A stretch of DNA of 7,307 nucleotides from a virus (lineage: Duplodnaviria > Heunggongvirae > Uroviricota > Caudoviricetes): IMG/VR virus record IMGVR_UViG_2619619129_000005, one strand, 5' to 3'. A program made the position numbers and the translations under genes. The stretch's first letter is position 1. Every line of letters starts with the position of its first letter. Below are positions 1 to 5,632 of the stretch, in pieces. Under the pieces are notes generated by a model. It was not told the origin of the DNA. It worked only from the letters and a program-made list of their open reading frames with translations, and did not search any database.

Positions 1-158
1 ATCTTGTAACAATCAGGCATACCACGGAGCTTGTTTGCTTCAATCCGGGGTGACTCAAGTACTTCAACCAGCTTCTTTTTCAACTGTTCACGTACCGTCG
101 AGCCCAGCTTTCGCCATTCCTTTAGTGCCCGCTCGTCAAAATCCAGAAAATACGCCAT
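1..158 (-). CDS. relE: RelE mRNA-interferase toxin, N-terminal 52 codons only (gene runs off the window start)
   Basis: Reverse complement of 1..158 translates MAYFLDFDERALKEWRKLGSTVREQLKKKLVEVLESPRIEANKLRGMPDCYKI, which matches the RelE N-terminus as I recall it. ATG at 158..156 overlaps the relB stop by one base (TGATG). Absent from the ORF track because no stop lies inside the window. Confidence 0.9.
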   Translation of the reverse strand, partial: MAYFLDFDERALKEWRKLGSTVREQLKKKLVEVLESPRIEANKLRGMPDCYK

Positions 159-397
159 CAGAGTTCATCCAGCGTCACACGTACTGGCTTAGGATTACGA
201 AGCCGTTCTTTCACTATCTCCACAAGTTCAGCATCTTCATCACTCAGGAGTGTCTGTTTGAACGGCAAGCGTTCATTGTCAGCGATATACTCGAGCATGA
301 GACGAAGCGCTTCAGAAGGAGTTACGCCCATTTTTTCAAGCGCGGCGTAAGAACGCGCTTTAAGTTCATCGTCAATACGCAGGTTAATGCTACCCAT
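158..397 (-). CDS. relB: RelB antitoxin (ribbon-helix-helix)
   Basis: 79-aa ORF MGSINLRIDDELKARSYAALEKMGVTPSEALRLMLEYIADNERLPFKQTLLSDEDAELVEIVKERLRNPKPVRVTLDEL, recognised as RelB. ATG at 397..395 with GAGG Shine-Dalgarno (complement of 406..409) 8 nt upstream. Immediately precedes relE. Confidence 0.93.
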   Translation of the reverse strand: MGSINLRIDDELKARSYAALEKMGVTPSEALRLMLEYIADNERLPFKQTLLSDEDAELVEIVKERLRNPKPVRVTLDEL

Positions 398-408
398 GTC
401 TTACACCT

Positions 409-434
409 CTTGTAATTACAAATGTCATTACAAG
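409..434. promoter_or_regulatory. relO-like operator of the relBE promoter
   Basis: Perfect 12-bp palindrome TTGTAATTACAA (410..421) inside a larger inverted repeat CTTGTAAT (409..416) / ATTACAAG (427..434), just upstream of the relB start on the minus strand. Repeated TTGTAA/TTACAA hexads fit the known RelB/RelE autoregulation sites. Confidence 0.6.
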
Positions 435-744
435 TATCGCACTACAACATGCTTAGGGCAAGTCACAAAGGAAGTCAGAAAGTAGTCGTAAGAACGGTGA
501 TCACTGTCCGCTTTGTGCCAGGAACGGACGTTACTACTAGCTCAAGCAAACCGCTCCTTAGCCCTTAATGAAGAATGGAGGTATTGGTATAAATAGGTGA
601 ATATCGGAATATCTCCAACAGGGAAAGGGACGTTTTTAGGGGATAACTATATTATCACCTAGTGGCCGTAAGAATATGCGCAGAGAGAACATATTTCACA
701 ACAGCCACCTTAGTTTTATGAAAAATCATAAACCGTAGGAATAT

Positions 745-1065
745 TTAAACGCATTTAAACGTCAGGCGAGCAACGCCATTAACAAGTAAGTGTGTATCAA
801 TATCAGTTCTGACTTCTTTCATAGATTTATTTTGTACCCTACAGAAATCAGAAGCCTTTTTTGTTGCAGTGCCAATAGCGCCTCGTATACGACCTGCAGC
901 AGGAGCAGCTTCTACCTCAGAGAGGTAGTTCCCATTATCCAGTTTTTTGACATCGGACTGATATGTCAGACCCAGGCCTTGAAACTGTGTTTTATCATTT
1001 TGCACAGAGCAACCGCTTAGAAAAGTACCAATTAAAATGGTGGTGGCAATTACTAATGTTTTCAT
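745..1065 (-). CDS. Putative lipoprotein (106 aa)
   Basis: ORF begins MKTLVIATTILIGTFLSGC: hydrophobic signal peptide followed by lipobox L-S-G-C with the invariant Cys, then a hydrophilic mature domain. ATG at 1065..1063, TAA stop at 747..745. Flanking DNA (about 1080..1200) is AT-rich. Not recognised as a named gene. Confidence 0.7.
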   Translation of the reverse strand: MKTLVIATTILIGTFLSGCSVQNDKTQFQGLGLTYQSDVKKLDNGNYLSEVEAAPAAGRIRGAIGTATKKASDFCRVQNKSMKEVRTDIDTHLLVNGVARLTFKCV

Positions 1066-1354
1066 GTAAAGAACAATCCTTATGTATTTGGTTAGTCTCT
1101 ATTCTACAAACTGAAATACAACATAAATTAAACCAATTGCTATTTATAGATTTGCATACAGCTATCGTATTGAATATTTAGAGAAATAAATCACACTAAC
1201 CGAAAAACAAGAACGTCAGGTGATCTGTTCCATATGATTCAGAACACATCGATGTAAACATGGATCCCTAACTTCCGCTTCTTGCTCTTAGCGGACATTA
1301 GCATAGGCTATTTACCATAACGCCTCATTACGCGCACCGCCCAGACTGACTCAG

Positions 1355-1420
1355 CGCGTTTCTGGCATATCCCCGGTAAAACAAGTAACAAACCACCCGA
1401 AAATGAACACCAGAAACGCG
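1355..1420. repeat. 11-bp perfect inverted repeat CGCGTTTCTGG (1355..1365) / CCAGAAACGCG (1410..1420), 44-bp spacer
   Basis: Read directly from the sequence. Lies in the non-coding gap between the lipoprotein gene and the 1475..1885 ORF. Function unknown. Confidence 0.5.
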
Positions 1421-1474
1421 ACTTAAGAATCTACCCTATGAATGGATATGCACTCAACCGAATCGATCTTGGTT

Positions 1475-1885
1475 TCAATCTTTTTTATCGGGATCAGGCT
1501 TCTTTTTAGGTAACTTCGGGGGCTTAACTTGCTGATGACTTTGCGTTCGGCGCGTAAGCCAGGGATGGTCAGCTTTAGGTTTAACATAGTATTTTGAGCG
1601 TAAATCAATACGGGCATTATCCACTCGTTCATGGACACTCTTTTCATCATCCAGTGGTATAGGCTCCGGGCCATCAACATACTTTTCCCAGCCCAGCGCT
1701 TTCCCGTCATACAGAACGTTAATTTCACCGTCAAAGTTCTCGCATACAGTAACAACCGAATGCCTAAGTCGATATCCCCGGCCCTCACTGCGTACCTGAA
1801 ACGCACTGCTTTTGTACTGGAAAGTGAGATTTTTAGACAGAACGCGCTTCGCCTGTAGGCTGAAGATATAACCCAGTATTATCAA
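1475..1885 (-). CDS. Hypothetical ORF (136 aa) with no ATG; possible gene remnant
   Basis: The translation contains no methionine apart from the TTG-derived first residue (complement of 1883..1885). The middle section (GEINVLYDGKALGWEKYVDG) looks like a real protein; the C-terminus is a Lys/Pro-rich tail (KPPKLPKKKPDPDKKD). May be a C-terminal fragment of a disrupted gene. Confidence 0.3.
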   Translation of the reverse strand: MIILGYIFSLQAKRVLSKNLTFQYKSSAFQVRSEGRGYRLRHSVVTVCENFDGEINVLYDGKALGWEKYVDGPEPIPLDDEKSVHERVDNARIDLRSKYYVKPKADHPWLTRRTQSHQQVKPPKLPKKKPDPDKKD

Positions 1886-2036
1886 CGGCTCGGAAGTGTC
1901 TAGATTATCCGTGGCGATTCAATTTTGTATATCAGCAGACCTTTTCGCGTCGTGTATTCAGCATCATGCTCAAGGGCTTTTGCCAGTACCGCACATGGTT
2001 CTATCTGATTGCTATTAACCTGACATTTTGATTCGC

Positions 2037-2459
2037 TCACAGCATCACCTCCTGAAATTCCCCCTGATAAAACGCCAGCGCTCGCTGCATAACCTCACTC
2101 TTCCGGCACTCGCGACAGATTATGTTCTGACGCCTGTCGTAGCGGCGTATTTCTCCGTCAGGTAATGACCTGATAAGGTCCGGATCAACCACAGCCGTTT
2201 TCTTCACCTTTGCCCTTGAGAGTTTTTTGCGGGCGTTTTGCCAGTCCTTACGGGCCTGTTCAGACGGGAATAATCCGCAGCCGGAGTTGTATACATCGCC
2301 ACTGGCTACCAGTTCTCTGGCAAGAACGCTCATCAGATATCTTGTTGCCCCAGTTTTAGCTTCCAGTTGTCGTAACGTCTCGCGCCCACTCTGGCGTACG
2401 AGTTCAACAACCTGCCCTTTAATTTTTTCCCGCTCTTCTTGTGTAAAAACTTTTGCCAC
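2037..2459 (-). CDS. Hypothetical basic phage protein (140 aa), directly downstream of the replication gene
   Basis: ORF MAKVFTQEEREKIKGQVVELVRQSGRETLRQLEAKTGATRYLMSVLARELV..., GTG start at 2459..2457 with AGGAGG (complement of 2464..2469) upstream. Arg/Lys-rich, one CxxC (ICRECRK). No family assigned. Same strand as the replication gene with a 40-bp gap. Confidence 0.55.
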   Translation of the reverse strand: MAKVFTQEEREKIKGQVVELVRQSGRETLRQLEAKTGATRYLMSVLARELVASGDVYNSGCGLFPSEQARKDWQNARKKLSRAKVKKTAVVDPDLIRSLPDGEIRRYDRRQNIICRECRKSEVMQRALAFYQGEFQEVML

Positions 2460-2499
2460 AAGTCCTCCTGAAAATTACCTCATGACCAGAAATTAACAC

Positions 2500-3576
2500 T
2501 TACCCCCTGAAGCCCGGCGGAATTTCGTTATCCGGTTCAGAAATATGATTCACACAACGCTGGTTGTTCGTGCCGCTTACCGGGAGCAACCAGGGGTTCT
2601 CAAAATTCCGGTCCGGTCCAAAAAACGTCGTCGCTCGCTGAACAAATTCCGTTCCCGTTTTCCCGGTAGCCGCCAAGTATCTTGCGTAACGCCTCACGCC
2701 ATCCAGCATGGCTTCTGGTGGCACCCCCTCGCGTAATCTGGCCTTCCAGGCACTGAAAGCGGATTTCTTCGGGTTTGCTCCGGCACGCAACGGGTACTCC
2801 CGCCAGACCTGTTCGAACACATCCGGATAATCCACTCGTCCCACAGACTGCCCGGTGTTTTCCGGGACTACCCGATCGGCTTCCCGCTGAATGGCGGAAT
2901 CGGCTTCGGGCTGCTGCAGTTGGTGTGATTGCTCCGGCCTTGCGGTCATCACCTGCTGCACAGCGCCCGAATCGGCTTTCAGCGCATACGCTGAATCGGC
3001 TTCCGGTGTCGTGCCTGCTGGCTGACCAAGATTGACGGTCTGAACATCCCCTGCCTGGTTCGTGGCGTTTTTTACGCCATGGACCATAGTGTTTTGATCT
3101 TCTTGATCTGTATCTTTATCTGTATCTTTATCTGTCGTGACTCGTCGTGACATGTGCGTGACATTTCGTGACGCGCCGTGACAATCGCCATTTTGTTCCC
3201 GCTTTCTTTCCCTCTCTCGCTGCGCCCTCTTGCGCTCTGCAGGAGATTTTGCGGTTTGCGAAATATTGCCGTTGTCCTCTTTAAGCACCTGGCGTTTTTC
3301 CCATCCAGTGATTAAATCACCATCAAGTACCCGCCCCTGCATCGTCTGCAAAATTGAATCAATTACCTCTTCTGTCACGTCGAGCGCACTTGCCAAATCT
3401 TCTGTCGTGACATCAATGTGACCTCGCGTGACATTTCGTGACGCGCTCACCAGGAGGTGGATATACACTGCCATCACTGTTGCAATTGGCTGCCCTGACA
3501 CTCTGGCAATTGTTCGCCACTTAGGGTCATTTGGCATGTCATGCCATAATCTGAGCCAGGCGTTAGCCATACTCAC
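2500..3576 (-). CDS. Phage replication initiation / replisome-organizer protein (358 aa, lambda O-like role) with the origin inside its coding sequence
   Basis: ATG at 3576..3574 with GAGGTGA Shine-Dalgarno upstream. N-terminus MSMANAWLRLWHDMPNDPKWRTIARVSG is typical of phage initiator DNA-binding domains. A low-complexity acidic/basic linker (ERKRAQRERERKRE, DKDTDKDTD) is encoded by the tandem repeats and iterons. Sits where O-like genes sit, downstream of the cro/cII-like genes. Confidence 0.75.
   Translation of the reverse strand: MSMANAWLRLWHDMPNDPKWRTIARVSGQPIATVMAVYIHLLVSASRNVTRGHIDVTTEDLASALDVTEEVIDSILQTMQGRVLDGDLITGWEKRQVLKEDNGNISQTAKSPAERKRAQRERERKREQNGDCHGASRNVTHMSRRVTTDKDTDKDTDQEDQNTMVHGVKNATNQAGDVQTVNLGQPAGTTPEADSAYALKADSGAVQQVMTARPEQSHQLQQPEADSAIQREADRVVPENTGQSVGRVDYPDVFEQVWREYPLRAGANPKKSAFSAWKARLREGVPPEAMLDGVRRYARYLAATGKTGTEFVQRATTFFGPDRNFENPWLLPVSGTNNQRCVNHISEPDNEIPPGFRG
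3096..3182. repeat. Candidate origin, cluster 1: 12-bp tandem ATCTGTATCTTT x2.5 (3106..3135) followed by five CGTGAC iterons
   Basis: CGTGAC at 3136, 3146, 3157, 3167 and 3177, spaced 10-11 bp (one helical turn). Immediately preceded by an AT-rich hexamer-periodic tandem repeat. Lies inside the replication-initiator gene, as ori-lambda lies inside O. Confidence 0.6.
3374..3446. repeat. Candidate origin, cluster 2: four (C/T)GTGAC iterons plus one inverted copy
   Basis: CGTGAC at 3406, 3427 and 3437, TGTGAC at 3417, spaced 10-11 bp; inverted GTCACG at 3374..3379. The 21-mer GCGTGACATTTCGTGACGCGC is identical at 3426..3446 and 3156..3176. TCTGTCGTGAC is identical at 3131..3141 and 3401..3411. 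Confidence 0.6.
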
Positions 3577-3641: not shown

Positions 3642-4067
3642 TCAATGTACTGCCACAGCATTTCCTGCCGGGCCACCACGGTTCATCTGATTGAAACCGG
3701 CGATTGCCACTGCGACAAAATCATCAGCGTCTCTCACCAGTCGCTCCCGCGTCTCCACCAGCTCCCGAAAATAAGCTGAACTGTGGCTGCGCATTCTGGC
3801 CACCAGCAAAGGTGGCATTGCCTTTTCGATCGCTGGTAACAACGCCTGAATTTTTTCAACTGCATCAGGGGTGTCTTTCTCTACCCAGCGGAAAATTTTC
3901 TGGGTATTGCGAGCCAGGGCTTCCGGATGGCTGTCGTCATACAGTTCCGGGAACGTCATTCCCAGCTCGAAATACGCTTTGGTAATTTTCGCAGCCGGTA
4001 CTTTTTCGCCGTCCGGATGCGCCCAGGCATTCATCGCCATGCGGATGTGTTCATGCTTGATTTTCAT
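3642..4067 (-). CDS. ydaT: YdaT-like protein (141 aa); family once proposed as a toxin, later reported to act as a CII-like regulator
   Basis: ORF MKIKHEHIRMAMNAWAHPDGEKVP... resembles Rac-prophage YdaT as I recall it; length and position (immediately after the Cro-like gene) match. Its ATG (4067..4065) overlaps the upstream gene stop (ATGA), indicating translational coupling. Confidence 0.65.
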   Translation of the reverse strand: MKIKHEHIRMAMNAWAHPDGEKVPAAKITKAYFELGMTFPELYDDSHPEALARNTQKIFRWVEKDTPDAVEKIQALLPAIEKAMPPLLVARMRSHSSAYFRELVETRERLVRDADDFVAVAIAGFNQMNRGGPAGNAVAVH

Positions 4068-4279
4068 GAATCATTCTTTCCTTCGTTCGAGGTGCTATCC
4101 TGCTTCTTGTAAAGTTCTGGGTTGTATTTCAATTCACCGTTAGTAATTTCATCCAGTTCCATTGCGCGAAGTTTGGGAATAACTGCTTTCCACCGCACAA
4201 CAGCCACATGTGAAATTCCAAGAGCCTCAGCTACTAGTCGCTTTTTTTTGAAATAGCGCAGAACATCATCTTTGAACAT
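4064..4279 (-). CDS. Cro-like HTH protein of the YdaS/DicC family (71 aa)
   Basis: ORF MFKDDVLRYFKKKRLVAEALGISHVAVVRWKAVIPKLRAMELDEITNGELKYNPELYKK... with HTH signature (LGISHVAVVRW). ATG at 4279..4277 with AGGAG (complement of 4286..4290) 6 nt upstream. Divergent from the repressor gene. Confidence 0.8.
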   Translation of the reverse strand: MFKDDVLRYFKKKRLVAEALGISHVAVVRWKAVIPKLRAMELDEITNGELKYNPELYKKQDSTSNEGKNDS

Positions 4280-4370
4280 AAAACTCTCCTGTTATTCCGA
4301 GCAGGAGGGTAACAATAGTTACATAGCAATGTCAACCATAGCAACATCACTTGGTAGTAACATTGGTTAC
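4280..4370. promoter_or_regulatory. Divergent OR-like region with two GTAAC-N4-GTTAC operator palindromes
   Basis: GTAAC-AATA-GTTAC at 4309..4322 and GTAAC-ATTG-GTTAC at 4357..4370, centres 48 bp apart. TTGACA on the minus strand (complement of 4330..4335) is a candidate -35 for the Cro-side promoter. The 91-bp gap between divergent start codons is typical of an immunity switch. Confidence 0.55.
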
Positions 4371-5045
4371 ATGAAAAACACTATCAGCGAACGTATTCGG
4401 AATCGTCGAAAAGACGTTGGATTAACCCAACAGCAGGTTGCGAAAGCAATCGGCATATCTCGTGTATCCGTAACAAAATGGGAAAATGGCTCTTCAAAAC
4501 CTGACGGTGAGAATTTGCATCTACTGTCAAAATTGCTTTCCAAATCTCCTGAATGGATTCTTTATGGAAAGGACGGTCACGATAAAACCGATGATCTGCG
4601 TCTGAATCAGTATCTTTACATTAGTGACAACATCGCCCGGTTGCCCGTTTTAACGTGGGAACAGGCTGGTTATTGGGATATGAGTTGTCCAGTAACCGAG
4701 ATTCCTGGCATTAAGAATTGGGTTGATGTCATGACAAAAACCGCTGAAAACTCTTTTTTATTGCATGTTGAGGGAGATGCGATGACAAACTCTAACGGCC
4801 TCCCAACCATCCCCGATGGATCTACCGTGCTGATCACACCATGCTCAAGTAACATTAGAGAACTGGTGGGAAAAATAATCTTAATCCAATTGGAAGGAAC
4901 GCCAAACGTAACACTAAAAAAAGTTGCGATTGACGGACCAAACATCTATCTGTTGTCACTGAATCCGCTTTACAAACCCATCGAACTGAATGGTGGTTAC
5001 ACCATTAAAGGTAAAGTTTCACAAATACATCAATACTTAGACTGA
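4371..5045 (+). CDS. dicA: Prophage repressor: DicA-like HTH N-domain plus LexA/CI-type S24 C-domain, with Ala at the catalytic Ser position
   Basis: N-terminus MKNTISERIRNRRKDVGLTQQQVAKAIGISRVSVTKWENG resembles DicA as I recall it. C-domain LLHVEGDAMTNSNG...TLKKVA...LNPLYKPIELNGGYTIKGKV aligns by eye with lambda CI (VEGNSMTAPTG...FKKL...LNPQYPMI...VVGKV). Start placed at ATG 4371 so both operators stay intergenic (leaderless, like lambda cI from PRM). Alternative starts: ATG 4329 and TTG 4272 (ORF-track start). The symbol is by family resemblance only; K-12 DicA is shorter and lacks the C-domain. Confidence 0.75.
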   Translation: MKNTISERIRNRRKDVGLTQQQVAKAIGISRVSVTKWENGSSKPDGENLHLLSKLLSKSPEWILYGKDGHDKTDDLRLNQYLYISDNIARLPVLTWEQAGYWDMSCPVTEIPGIKNWVDVMTKTAENSFLLHVEGDAMTNSNGLPTIPDGSTVLITPCSSNIRELVGKIILIQLEGTPNVTLKKVAIDGPNIYLLSLNPLYKPIELNGGYTIKGKVSQIHQYLD

Positions 5046-5050
5046 GTCAG

Positions 5051-5075
5051 AACCCGCATTCATTGCGGGTTTTTC
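5051..5075 (+). terminator. Rho-independent terminator after the repressor gene
   Basis: Stem AACCCGCA (5051..5058) / TGCGGGTT (5064..5071), 5-nt loop, followed by TTTTT (5070..5074). Starts 6 nt after the repressor stop (5043..5045). Confidence 0.7.
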
Positions 5076-5107
5076 ACGCTCTCAAATGTACCTTTTGCAA
5101 CATCGTA

Positions 5108-5136
5108 TTGACTCGAAAGGTAACTCTTGTTACCTT
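5108..5136 (+). promoter_or_regulatory. OL/PL-like promoter-operator for the rightward ydfA-dicB operon
   Basis: Perfect 20-bp palindrome AAGGTAAC-TCTT-GTTACCTT (5117..5136), sharing the GTAAC/GTTAC half-sites with the OR palindromes. TTGACT (5108..5113) is a candidate -35 and TACCTT (5131..5136, 17-bp spacer) a weak -10. Position after the repressor terminator mirrors lambda cI-tL-OL/PL. Confidence 0.55.
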
Positions 5137-5317
5137 AACGGCATGCCAACCCACCCCGCCCCACAGAATGCAGGGCAATACTTCGAGTTACCAGGCAGTG
5201 GTCAGGGGTTAAGTAGCCAGCCCGAGGCGTAAGAACATGACGGCAGGGTTCAACTTTAATAACTATGCAGCAGGTTTTTGTTCCGCTACCCCGGCGTTAA
5301 GGGGAAATGAGGTCAGC

Positions 5318-5473
5318 ATGGATACTATCGATCTTGGCAACAGCGAATCTCTGGTATGTGGCGTGTTCCCCAACCAGGACGGTACGTTCACCGCGATGAC
5401 GTATACCAAAAGCAAAACGTTTAAAACCGAAAATGGTGCCCGTCGCTGGCTGGAAAGAAACTCAGGTGAGTGA
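5318..5473 (+). CDS. ydfA: Small prophage protein (51 aa), YdfA/YdaF-like
   Basis: ATG 5318 with GAGGT (5309..5313) upstream; product MDTIDLGNSESLVCGVFPNQDGTFTAMTYTKSKTFKTENGARRWLERNSGE. Size and position (first gene after the OL-like operator) match K-12 ydfA. The ORF-track version starts earlier at 5237 (78 aa), an alternative. Symbol is by size and synteny, not verified by alignment. Confidence 0.6.
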   Translation: MDTIDLGNSESLVCGVFPNQDGTFTAMTYTKSKTFKTENGARRWLERNSGE

Positions 5474-5474
5474 T

Positions 5475-5603
5475 ATGGATTTTGACACAATCATGGAAAA
5501 GGCTTACGAAGAATACTTCGAAGGCCTTGCCGAAGGCGAAGAAGCTCACAGCTTCAACGAATTTAAACAGGTGCTTTCCAGTTCGGCAAAATCTAACGGC
5601 TGA
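5475..5603 (+). CDS. ydfB: Small acidic prophage protein (42 aa), YdfB/YdaG-like
   Basis: ATG 5475 one base after the preceding stop (TGATATG) with AGGTGAG Shine-Dalgarno; product MDFDTIMEKAYEEYFEGLAEGEEAHSFNEFKQVLSSSAKSNG; stop TGA 5601..5603. Below the ORF-track size cutoff. Symbol by size and synteny. Confidence 0.6.
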   Translation: MDFDTIMEKAYEEYFEGLAEGEEAHSFNEFKQVLSSSAKSNG

Positions 5604-5632
5604 TAAGCGAAACAGCACCGCGAGGAATCAGT

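Follow-up and report, generated by a model that had tools for sequence, protein, structure and literature searches.

Positions 1066..2459 of the window, by which we mean the whole 7,307-nucleotide stretch of DNA analyzed here, lie within the early-right region of an E. coli lambdoid prophage of the Qin/Rac type. A preliminary description of this block had reported a 140-aa ORF, an ATG-less 136-aa ORF, and an 11-bp inverted repeat, and all three are present where it placed them. Read along the minus strand, the replication gene (2500..3576) is followed by a DUF977 gene, a truncated 84-aa gene, an IS3 stump, and an ISEsa1-like fragment. The features, with the evidence on which each is drawn, are as follows.

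1066..1252, minus strand: upstream region, presumed promoter, of a YegR-like lipoprotein gene (745..1065, minus strand); identity to plasmid sequences and Pfam record of the lipoprotein
1253..1269, minus strand: probably the outer 17 nt of the terminal inverted repeat at the right of the IS, a tentative assignment; register with the left end
1270..1474, minus strand: non-coding right end of the ISEsa1-like element; 15-copy alignment
1355..1420, minus strand: inverted repeat within the IS right end, conserved and able to form a hairpin; copy alignment and RNA folding
1475..1877, minus strand: 3' part (codons 314-446 of 446, and the stop) of a transposase gene, IS1202 family, ISEsa1-like; BLASTP
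1475..1624, minus strand: 49-codon ORF named "protein YdfW" by RefSeq (E. coli K-12 Qin prophage); mapping of Qin copy L001
1873..1877, no strand: 5-bp microhomology CCAGT at a deletion junction; three-way comparison of the window, L001, and L094/L095
1873..1924, plus strand: right-terminal 52 bp of an IS3-family element; 100% identity to the 3' ends of annotated elements
1900..2040, minus strand: truncated 5' part of an 84-aa phage gene (phrog_4030); profile and DNA alignment
2037..2459, minus strand: intact DUF977/Ren-like gene, 140 aa; Pfam PF06163 and phrog_142

We are highly confident that the block as a whole is one intact phage gene (DUF977) followed by the debris of two insertion sequences, one of the IS3 family and one ISEsa1-like. 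It consists of known elements throughout.

The intact gene has a GTG start with an AGGAGG ribosome-binding site 6 nt upstream, is separated by 40 nt from the 358-aa replication gene upstream of it, and encodes a basic protein (pI 9.75; 28 K+R versus 19 D+E). This protein had been left unassigned, and it turned out to be a full-length member of both Pfam DUF977 and PHROG 142. Its residues 1-136 cover positions 1-134 of the 134-position PF06163 profile (E 3.4e-32), with a score of 111.8 bits against a gathering cut-off of 22.1, and it matches phrog_142, "Ren-like exclusion protein," with an E value of 3e-46, its place downstream of the replication genes agreeing with that family. Lambda Ren matches the same profile with an E value of 1.6e-41. 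Direct comparison of the two proteins by BLASTP recovered a common C-terminal motif (E 7e-6), and homology to Ren outside this motif is suggested by the common PHROG membership. RefSeq records of relatives annotate the same DUF977 CDS.

Structure prediction, proposed earlier as a check on this protein, gave a winged helix at residues 7-65; the AF2 alignment was shallow, with only alleles at 89-95% identity among the homologues listed, and the C-terminal third of the model is of low confidence. Foldseek against the PDB returned generic winged-helix/wHTH regulators (E≥0.04) and no specific functional analogue, and the PDB sequence search gave no meaningful match. The opinion that the protein does not look like a helicase loader held, since neither Pfam, PHROG, nor NCBIfam produced a P or DnaC/IstB match and the predicted fold is a winged helix, not an AAA+ fold. 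The 358-aa replication protein plausibly supplies the loader function itself: it matches phrog_3729 and also, on residues 124-358, the DnaD-like loader phrog_1701. The companion opinion, that the protein does not look like a nin gene product either, did not survive, because PHROG 142 is the family of the gene that comes after the lambda replication genes, which makes the protein an accessory of the nin-region type.

Two features had been overlooked in the preliminary description, a truncated phage ORF (46 aa, 1900..2040, minus strand) and the 52-bp IS3-family end (1873..1924). The truncated ORF belongs to a gene of 84 aa whose usual place is directly after DUF977, start and stop overlapping by 4 nt. 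Some 40 of its codons are native (1922..2040); the IS3 remnant, which cuts the gene short, supplies the final 6 codons and the stop. It matches positions 2-41 of the 85-position phrog_4030 profile (E 3.9e-14), to which the full-length 84-aa homologue at L005:2872-3126 matches with an E value of 1.8e-38, and the DNA alignment with L005 is identical as far as ...GATATACAAAAT and divergent beyond. In the IS3 stump, orfB survives as its final 31 nt, with a TAG stop at 1901-1903, and 1909-1921 is the terminal inverted repeat ...CCGTGGCGATTCA. The 52 bp of the stump are 100% identical to IS3-family 3' ends in >1400 E. coli genomes and on plasmids, for which RefSeq gives no specific IS name. In locus L094, the IS3 transposase occupies 1387..2531 and the 52-bp match 2501..2552, the element having TGAATCGCCACGG at its left and right ends alike. 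IS3 elements carry orfA and orfB with a programmed frameshift between terminal inverted repeats, and the window retains only the orfB tail and the right repeat.

At the CCAGT microhomology, the interior of the ISEsa1-like transposase gene is fused to the interior of the IS3-family orfB, as seen when the window is set beside an ISEsa1 copy (L001) and two IS3 copies (L094/L095). A reading of 1878-1916 as a leftover of the ISEsa1 left end, i.e., an internal deletion of a single IS, was rejected, as this stretch has no left-end match and is 100% IS3-family sequence.

On the other side of the junction, the 136-aa ORF (1475..1885, minus strand) starts with TTG, contains no in-frame ATG, and ends in ...KPPKLPKKKPDPDKKD. 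Aside from three leading codons (TTG ATA ATA) read antisense from the IS3 remnant, it is a transposase fragment: 133 of 133 residues agree with positions 314-446 of an intact ISEsa1-family transposase of 446 aa, the stop codon is shared, and over 1270..1877 (608 bp) the DNA has 100% identity to positions 5001-5608 of the Qin copy L001. The alignment to relatives that had been suggested thus identified 1475..1885 as the tail of a longer gene. The ORF had been called decayed or frameshifted; it is decayed, by truncation at its 5' end and not by a frameshift, and the Lys/Pro-rich tail taken as a sign of decay is the native C terminus of the transposase. The HTH domains (residues 10-116) and the catalytic rve/rve_3 (DDE) region (144-291) of the intact protein are missing from the fragment, which matches phrog_8463 transposase at positions 316-380 of 380 and NCBIfam ISNCY_2 in its C-terminal region with an E value of 1.7e-6, below the full-length cut-off, as expected of a fragment. 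The family transposase of ~440 to 460 aa, TnsB-like and of the DDE type with N-terminal HTH domains, is therefore represented in the window only by a surviving part, identical in amino acids (133/133) and nucleotides (608/608). This piece is the remnant of a family member, not an element, and it is immobile because it is without the catalytic domain and has one end only.

The extreme C-terminal tail of this fragment also carries a protein name. The ydfW gene of L001 (5206..5355) maps to 1475..1624, gene callers predict the same 49-aa ORF in assemblies with the window arrangement, and for the homologous stretch RefSeq lists, besides "YdfW," a pseudogene labeled "IS1202-like element ISEsa1 family transposase." A domesticated tail, in which the 136-aa ORF or its 49-aa YdfW part would be a functional small basic protein, could draw on this name and its accession (WP_011443592.1), on its retention in K-12 Qin and many other genomes, and on a frame open over 136 codons. 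We nevertheless regard domestication as highly improbable: the sequence matches that part of intact IS copies without a difference and gives no sign of independent evolution, the deletion junction is what created the TTG of the longer ORF, nearby promoter-like sites are no commoner than in shuffles, and the length of the fragment differs between genomes, as decay predicts.

The right end of the ISEsa1-like element (1270..1474), delimited by an alignment of 15 IS copies from independent contexts, runs from the transposase stop codon to the terminal repeat and carries motifs resembling transposase sites, one of the AATGTCCGC type at 1270-1278 and an inverted copy, GCGGACATT, at 1292-1300. The homology of the other copies ends within window positions 1267-1284. 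The adjoining 1253..1269 reads TGTAAACATGGATCCCT on the plus strand, and the right end TGTAAACA is in exact register with the left end, TGTTAACA, in the outer part, with 16 of 26 positions matching over the whole repeat. In a Hahella relative (10 copies), another 17 nt, the last three of them ACA, follow GGGGACATT to make up the true right end. The outer 17 nt were not found in any independent copy, by pattern search of the retrieved loci or by BLAST in plasmids, and occurred in the same lipoprotein context only. The right end probably lies at 1253-1278, and the terminus is fixed only to within 1253-1270. A terminus at 1270, where the Qin homology stops, is the less probable, as the Hahella copies run 17 nt past the GGGGACATT site. 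The surviving right end measures ~205 to 220 bp.

The properties of the IS1202 family, to which ISEsa1 belongs and which has a TnsB-like DDE transposase, have been published, the ISEsa1 reference being 1609 bp long with a terminal inverted repeat of 15/22 (PMC10132070). Intact copies measure ~1620 to 1637 bp against these 1609 bp, the value varying with the placement of the right end, and the published 15/22 is regained only when the window's AACTTCCGC is swapped for the AATGTCCGC of other copies, the window's own value being 13/22. Family terminal repeats are imperfect and 22 to 26 bp long with outer 5'-TGT...ACA-3'; the left end is not in the window, whose probable right end has the above 16/26 to the left end. 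Left ends of intact ISEsa1 relatives combine TGT termini with a AATGTCCCC site that is repeated.

The inverted repeat lies within this non-coding right end, with perfect 11-bp arms at 1355-1365 and 1410-1420 and 44 nt between them. As RNA, it would form 14 pairs with G-U (1355-1368/1407-1420) and an inner 8-bp stem, the loop holding a conserved TTTTCGGGTGGTTTGTTAC and a GGGGA(T/C)A motif, and the 211-nt end folds with a minimum free energy of -67.7 kcal/mol (z -2.6). At least one perfect 11-bp inverted repeat (loop ≤100 nt) occurs in 14% of window shuffles. By itself the repeat is thus not beyond chance, and we take it as real because of its conservation in related IS copies. It had been viewed as a separate feature just beyond the ORF, possibly marking an insertion boundary; it is part of the same IS's right end, ~85 to 165 nt inside the terminus, present in full-length copies and conserved in every close ISEsa1-clade copy examined. 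A small, independent MITE-like element or an insertion boundary with these arms as its ends is suggested by two perfect arms just 44 nt apart, and it is the reading that we find hardest to credit, given that arms and loop are colinear in every full-length ISEsa1-clade copy, that no duplications flank them, that the 66-bp unit is missing from no copy (in L037 the loop is shortened), and that chance alone yields such repeats at the rate above.

What the hairpin does in intact copies can be approached from its pattern of change. The 12-bp stem is retained in nine copies down to about 70% identity, with positions either invariant or changed on one side only and no double compensatory changes among the nine, and such conservation could mean sequence-specific protein binding or merely the low divergence of the copies. 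The repeat is absent from relatives at ≤62% amino acid identity (Hahella, Chlamydiae, Massilia, and Castellaniella). An intrinsic terminator was considered and rejected: it calls for a short GC-rich stem, a 3- to 8-nt loop, and a U tract, and the terminator scan found nothing at 1355-1420, where the loop measures 44 nt (20 nt when the inner stem is counted) and there is no T run. In intact IS copies the hairpin would serve the IS, as a 3' stem-loop of the transposase transcript or a protein-binding palindrome. In the window it is a relic. The Rfam scan of 1000-2600 at E≤1 found no family, and promoter and terminator scans gave counts not above those in shuffles.

Abutting the IS right end is a relBE-ydfV'-lipoprotein module that includes 1066..1252, is common to enterobacterial plasmids, and whose lipoprotein (745..1065) is recorded under Pfam YegR. 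The window matches pCF10-tmexCD1 at 99.9% identity over 556..1313, a K. pneumoniae plasmid at 99.6% over 506..1296, and pEF7-18-58_2 at 99.7% over 660..1266. The arrangement of the block is inherited and not an assembly artifact, because several E. coli assemblies carry it at 99.8 to 100% identity and the positions at which draft contigs end (1262, 1291, and 1879) are the edges of the repeated IS fragment. Draft assemblies thus break at these coordinates because IS remnants are stitched together there.

We propose that an IS3-family element would have inserted into the 84-aa gene and that a later microhomology-mediated deletion would have taken most of the IS3, together with the nin-region genes lying in between and the leftmost ~1 kb of the ISEsa1-like element. 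This order, insertion and then deletion, is read from the anatomy of the junction, and the left half is equally compatible with recombination with a plasmid carrying the relBE-lipoprotein-IS module. The earlier suggestion of a mobile-element scar is borne out, with two IS remnants as its source.

The block had also been seen as a possible defense or exclusion cassette, i.e., two small basic proteins with a regulatory palindrome. Such a unit would suit a variable accessory region of a prophage adjoining the relBE and hokD toxin-antitoxin genes, the PHROG label of the 140-aa family names exclusion, and ydaW, the DUF977 gene of the Rac prophage, was one of the genes recovered when overexpressed prophage genes were screened for blocking the toxicity of retron-Sen2 RcaT. 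We consider it very unlikely: none of the block's four ORFs has a match to any PADLOC component model, the second "protein" is 100% transposase tail without a start codon of its own, and the palindrome belongs to the IS. Moreover, the three features form no conserved unit, because unrelated genes follow DUF977 in intact prophages. Ren itself is said, from the work of Toothman and Herskowitz in 1980, to be a phage-side counter-exclusion function and not host defense. The outcome named in advance as refuting an uncharacterized module, in which both ORFs match known accessory proteins and the repeat is absent from homologous loci, was seen only by half: one ORF matches a known accessory family, and the repeat is present in homologous loci, not absent from them.

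The preferred reading, one intact DUF977 gene and the debris of two insertion sequences, leaves two functions to consider. From its family membership, the DUF977 protein would act like lambda Ren, as a small early DNA- or protein-binding factor which, coexpressed with the replication genes, would shield the phage from host or prophage exclusion systems. DUF977/Ren-like winged-helix proteins may be a widespread prophage counter-defense against Rex-type abortive infection or retron toxins, a reading that fits lambda ren genetics, in which resistance to Rex exclusion is the defining phenotype, and the ydaW result. The 12- to 14-bp hairpin may be a 3' structure of the RNA or a palindrome to which the transposase or a host factor binds; to our knowledge, such a hairpin has not been described for IS1202-family elements. 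These possibilities, a DUF977/Ren-like counter-defense family and an ISEsa1-clade hairpin acting as a cis-regulatory element of transposition, are unlikely in our judgment, and neither is specific to this window.

Beyond annotation hygiene, the significance of the locus is small. Neither "protein YdfW" nor the ATG-less 136-aa ORF should be taken for a candidate accessory protein, both being C-terminal tail sequence from a dead ISEsa1-family transposase, and the block exemplifies how IS3- and IS1202-family remnants join a plasmid-shared relBE-lipoprotein module to the early region of a prophage. The one biological question that it touches is the function of the Ren/DUF977 family.

The transposase C terminus is identical to that of intact ISEsa1-family members, the window holding the last 30% of the gene and one end only, and the 52 bp of the IS3 stump, terminal repeat included, are 100% identical to complete IS3-family elements, the rest of the element being gone. 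The K-12 Qin prophage has the same IS remnant in the same orientation and neighborhood (relE-relB-ydfV ... ydfW). It differs beyond the IS right end, where flxA stands in Qin and the plasmid-shared YegR-like lipoprotein module in the window, and at the inner break: the retained part of the transposase gene is shorter in K-12 Qin and nearly complete in such strains as DSM 103246, and in the window, unlike Qin, the fragment is fused to an IS3 stump.

The DUF977 protein is one allele of many, hundreds at 89-95% identity occurring in E. coli prophages, and YdaW of the Rac prophage and other lambdoid-prophage DUF977 proteins are likewise full-length members of the Pfam family. With lambda Ren, it has in common PHROG 142, the slot right after the replication genes (O-P-ren-ninB in lambda), the size class, an N-terminal winged-helix signature, and the C-terminal motif (I/V)xx(R/K)ECRxSxxMxRxLAxY within a helix. 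It differs from Ren in length (140 versus 96 aa), in an additional helix and a ~28-residue disordered linker, and in pairwise similarity limited to about 20 residues, lambda Ren itself falling below the Pfam DUF977 model.

The block at window 1066-2459, between the replication gene and the lipoprotein gene, consists of an intact common Ren-like gene and, after it, a truncated phage gene, the stump of an IS3-family element, and the 3' third of an ISEsa1-like insertion sequence carrying its conserved right-end hairpin. The window covers the early region of an E. coli lambdoid prophage of the Qin/Rac type, and public records label the exact DUF977 and lipoprotein alleles E. coli. The ORF table and the sequence bore out the 140-aa ORF, the ATG-less 136-aa ORF, and the inverted repeat of the preliminary description, within the following features:

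158..397, RelB
745..1065, lipoprotein
1475..1885, minus strand, 136-aa ORF opening with TTG, no in-frame ATG, C-terminal end KPPKLPKKKPDPDKKD
2037..2459, minus strand, 140-aa ORF (DUF977 gene), GTG start, AGGAGG 6 nt upstream, pI 9.75
2500..3576, replication initiator of 358 aa, matching phrog_3729
further window genes: a YdaT/CII-like gene, a Cro-like gene, and a LexA/S24-type repressor gene

Alignment to related prophages and genomes identified 1475..1885 as the tail of a longer gene encoding a 446-aa transposase. In a BLAST search of complete E. coli genomes, 1270..1877 matched, at 100% identity, a part of the Qin prophage that RefSeq labels "IS1202-like element ISEsa1 family transposase" (pseudogene) and "protein YdfW," and an Enterobacter plasmid carries an intact copy. 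Residues 4 to 136 of the window ORF are identical to residues 314 to 446 of the intact transposase (133/133), with a common stop codon, so the Lys/Pro-rich tail is the native C-terminus; the gene is thus decayed, as had been proposed, but not frameshifted. The helix-turn-helix domains and the DDE (rve) core, upstream of residue 291 in the intact transposase, are missing from the fragment, and codons 1 to 3 (TTG ATA ATA) are foreign sequence at the junction. Since the 49-aa YdfW of K-12 maps to 1475..1624, it corresponds to the extreme tail of the transposase fragment. IS1202-family elements encode TnsB-like transposases, end in TGT/ACA, and carry further, subterminal copies of the inner terminal inverted repeat (TIR); the ISEsa1 entry gives 1,609 bp, a TIR of 15/22, and no target duplication (PMC10132070).

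On the other side of the junction, intact prophages carry an 84-aa PHROG 4030 gene after DUF977, with a 4-nt overlap, of which the window retains the first ~40 codons as a 46-aa ORF (1900..2040). Positions 1873..1924 match, at 100% identity, the final 52 bp of IS3-family elements found in >1,400 E. coli genomes and take in 31 nt from the 3' end of orfB (stop at 1901-1903) plus the terminal repeat. Five bases, CCAGT (1873-1877), are common to the IS3 stump and the ISEsa1 fragment and form, to judge from the sequence, a microhomology deletion junction. The decayed gene or mobile scar initially suspected is thereby identified as the IS3 stump and the ISEsa1-like 3' third.

The perfect 11-bp inverted repeat (arms 1355-1365 and 1410-1420) had been read as a possible insertion boundary. 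A repeat of that length and spacing is statistically unremarkable alone, being present in 14% of shuffled windows. We aligned IS ends from 78 fetched loci encoding relatives of the transposase. All close copies are colinear at their right end with the 205 bp from the transposase stop codon to 1270, and the arms GCGTTTCTG ... CAGAAACGC, along with a large part of the loop, are kept in copies down to ~70% nucleotide identity, which makes the repeat a conserved internal feature of the ISEsa1 clade, 85-165 nt inside the IS terminus, and not a boundary. It is absent from more distant relatives (≤62% amino acid identity). In transposase-sense RNA, the repeat lengthens into a hairpin of 14+8 bp, and the right end containing it folds better than shuffles (z, -2.6). 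Across nine copies, RNAalifold kept a 12-bp stem in which variable pairs change one side only, mostly via G-U (one pair being GU/GC/AU/AC), with no pair changed on both sides. The repeat is not terminator-like by a terminator scan, and no Rfam family matched it.

Homology to Qin ends at 1270 and to other copies at 1267-1284. A Hahella relative present in ten identical copies shows the true right end to be GGGGACATT plus a further 17 nt that terminate in ACA. Beyond the corresponding site, the 17 nt of the window (plus strand from 1253) read TGTAAACATGGATCCCT and, in exact register, match the outer part of the left end (TGTAAACA versus TGTTAACA; the ISEsa1-clade left end starts TGTTAACACCAAGCTGTAATGTCCCC), a match that places the right terminus probably at 1253. 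No copy confirming this position was found among the fetched loci or in plasmid BLAST outside the lipoprotein context.

The ISEsa1-clade right end (1270-1300 and homologues) carries a transposase-site-like motif in both orientations (AATGTCCGC, 12 nt, GCGGACATT; in most copies a 9-bp palindrome), whereas the two sites at the left end, and at each end of the Hahella relative, share one orientation. Hahella sp. SMD15-11 (L026-L036 and L052) holds at least 10 identical copies of this 62%-identical IS1202-family element, with sharp TGT...ACA ends and long target duplications (~13-16 bp), which points to an element active in that genome. Just outside the ISEsa1 left end, 20-28 nt are similar in Qin (L001, 6621-6648) and on several plasmids, reading ...GCAAGGAGAAG(C/A)AGGC(T/C)AT (loci L001, L006, L007, L008, and L017); on the plasmids, a DUF5431/hok-like gene lies next to them. 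Either the IS took some flanking DNA along when it moved or it has a preference for hok-like targets.

The left flank (1..564 and 556..1313) is 99.6-99.9% identical to plasmid pCF10-tmexCD1, whose copy is interrupted by IS1 and ended by IS26, and plasmids from Klebsiella and E. coli also carry segments of 1..1313; a relBE-ydfV'-lipoprotein-IS-end module is therefore common to plasmids and this prophage lineage. The same identity range holds for IncHI/IncF plasmid segments from Citrobacter, Klebsiella, and E. coli (L096, which is pCF10-tmexCD1, L097, and L004) spanning relE'-relB-ydfV', the YegR-like lipoprotein gene, and the outer ISEsa1 right end (1-1313), the plasmid copies being cut by IS1 (9-bp overlap, 556-564), IS26, or IS903B. 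The chromosomes of Serratia, Citrobacter, and Kluyvera carry lipoprotein homologues. Qin homology across relB-ydfV ends at 536, inside ydfV; in the window lineage, the lipoprotein segment (537-1269) takes the place of flxA and the remainder of ydfV.

Two E. coli assemblies contain the whole window (99.8-99.9% identity), and two more contain its left 3-4 kb with the block complete (99.6-100%), one of these two having another immunity region. Draft contigs break off at the borders of the repeated IS fragment, namely 1262, 1291, and 1879. The whole block occurs in 0 of 5,426 complete RefSeq E. coli genomes. Assemblies with the identical IS-scarred block (L088, L090, and L093) differ from window 4074-5141 in their immunity module, encoding a repressor of 139 aa and a Cro-like protein of 84-93 aa where the window has the LexA/S24-type repressor. 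An identical scar beside different immunity modules implies that the scar predates, or was spread by, recombination among prophages.

The C-terminal two thirds of the replication initiator also match a DnaD-like helicase-loader family. Its gene contains two CGTGAC clusters (3144-3182 and 3404-3442, 260 bp apart; four copies each at 8-11-nt spacing), whose iteron-like arrangement suggests a prophage origin inside the initiator gene, as in lambda O. In the cII position, the gene at 3642-4067 (minus strand) matches both Pfam YdaT_toxin (E, 7e-10) and the PHROG "CII-like transcriptional activator" (E, 2e-45), one family under two conflicting functional labels.

The 140-aa protein, thought unfamiliar and placed in a helicase-loader slot, matches Pfam DUF977 over its full length (E, 3.4e-32) and PHROG 142, "Ren-like exclusion protein" (E, 3e-46). 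Lambda Ren from NC_001416 matches this PHROG too (E, 1.6e-41) and has a C-terminal motif in common with the 140-aa protein (NIICRECRKSEVMQRALAFY/NLVFKECRQSAAMKRVLAVY). Lambda ren mutants reportedly become sensitive to Rex exclusion (Toothman and Herskowitz, 1980). AlphaFold (mean pLDDT, 73) gave a confident winged helix-turn-helix (residues 7-65), a helix (67-82), a disordered linker (86-113), and short C-terminal helices, while Foldseek returned generic MarR/GntR/IclR-type winged helices only. The literature describes Ren as "likely involved in DNA replication" and as contacting Rex proteins in two-hybrid assays (a RexB-Ren yeast two-hybrid interaction is listed), and ydaW, the Rac DUF977 gene, was among several prophage "blockers" of the retron-Sen2 toxin in a screen. 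The protein had no match in PADLOC or in a PDB sequence search, and the suggested defense cassette gives way to a Ren-like prophage gene and IS debris. Altogether, the block holds nothing new in kind. DUF977 immediately follows the replication gene(s) in the window and in intact relatives, as ren does in the lambda order O-P-ren-ninB, and thus occupies the ren slot and not a vacated helicase-loader slot.
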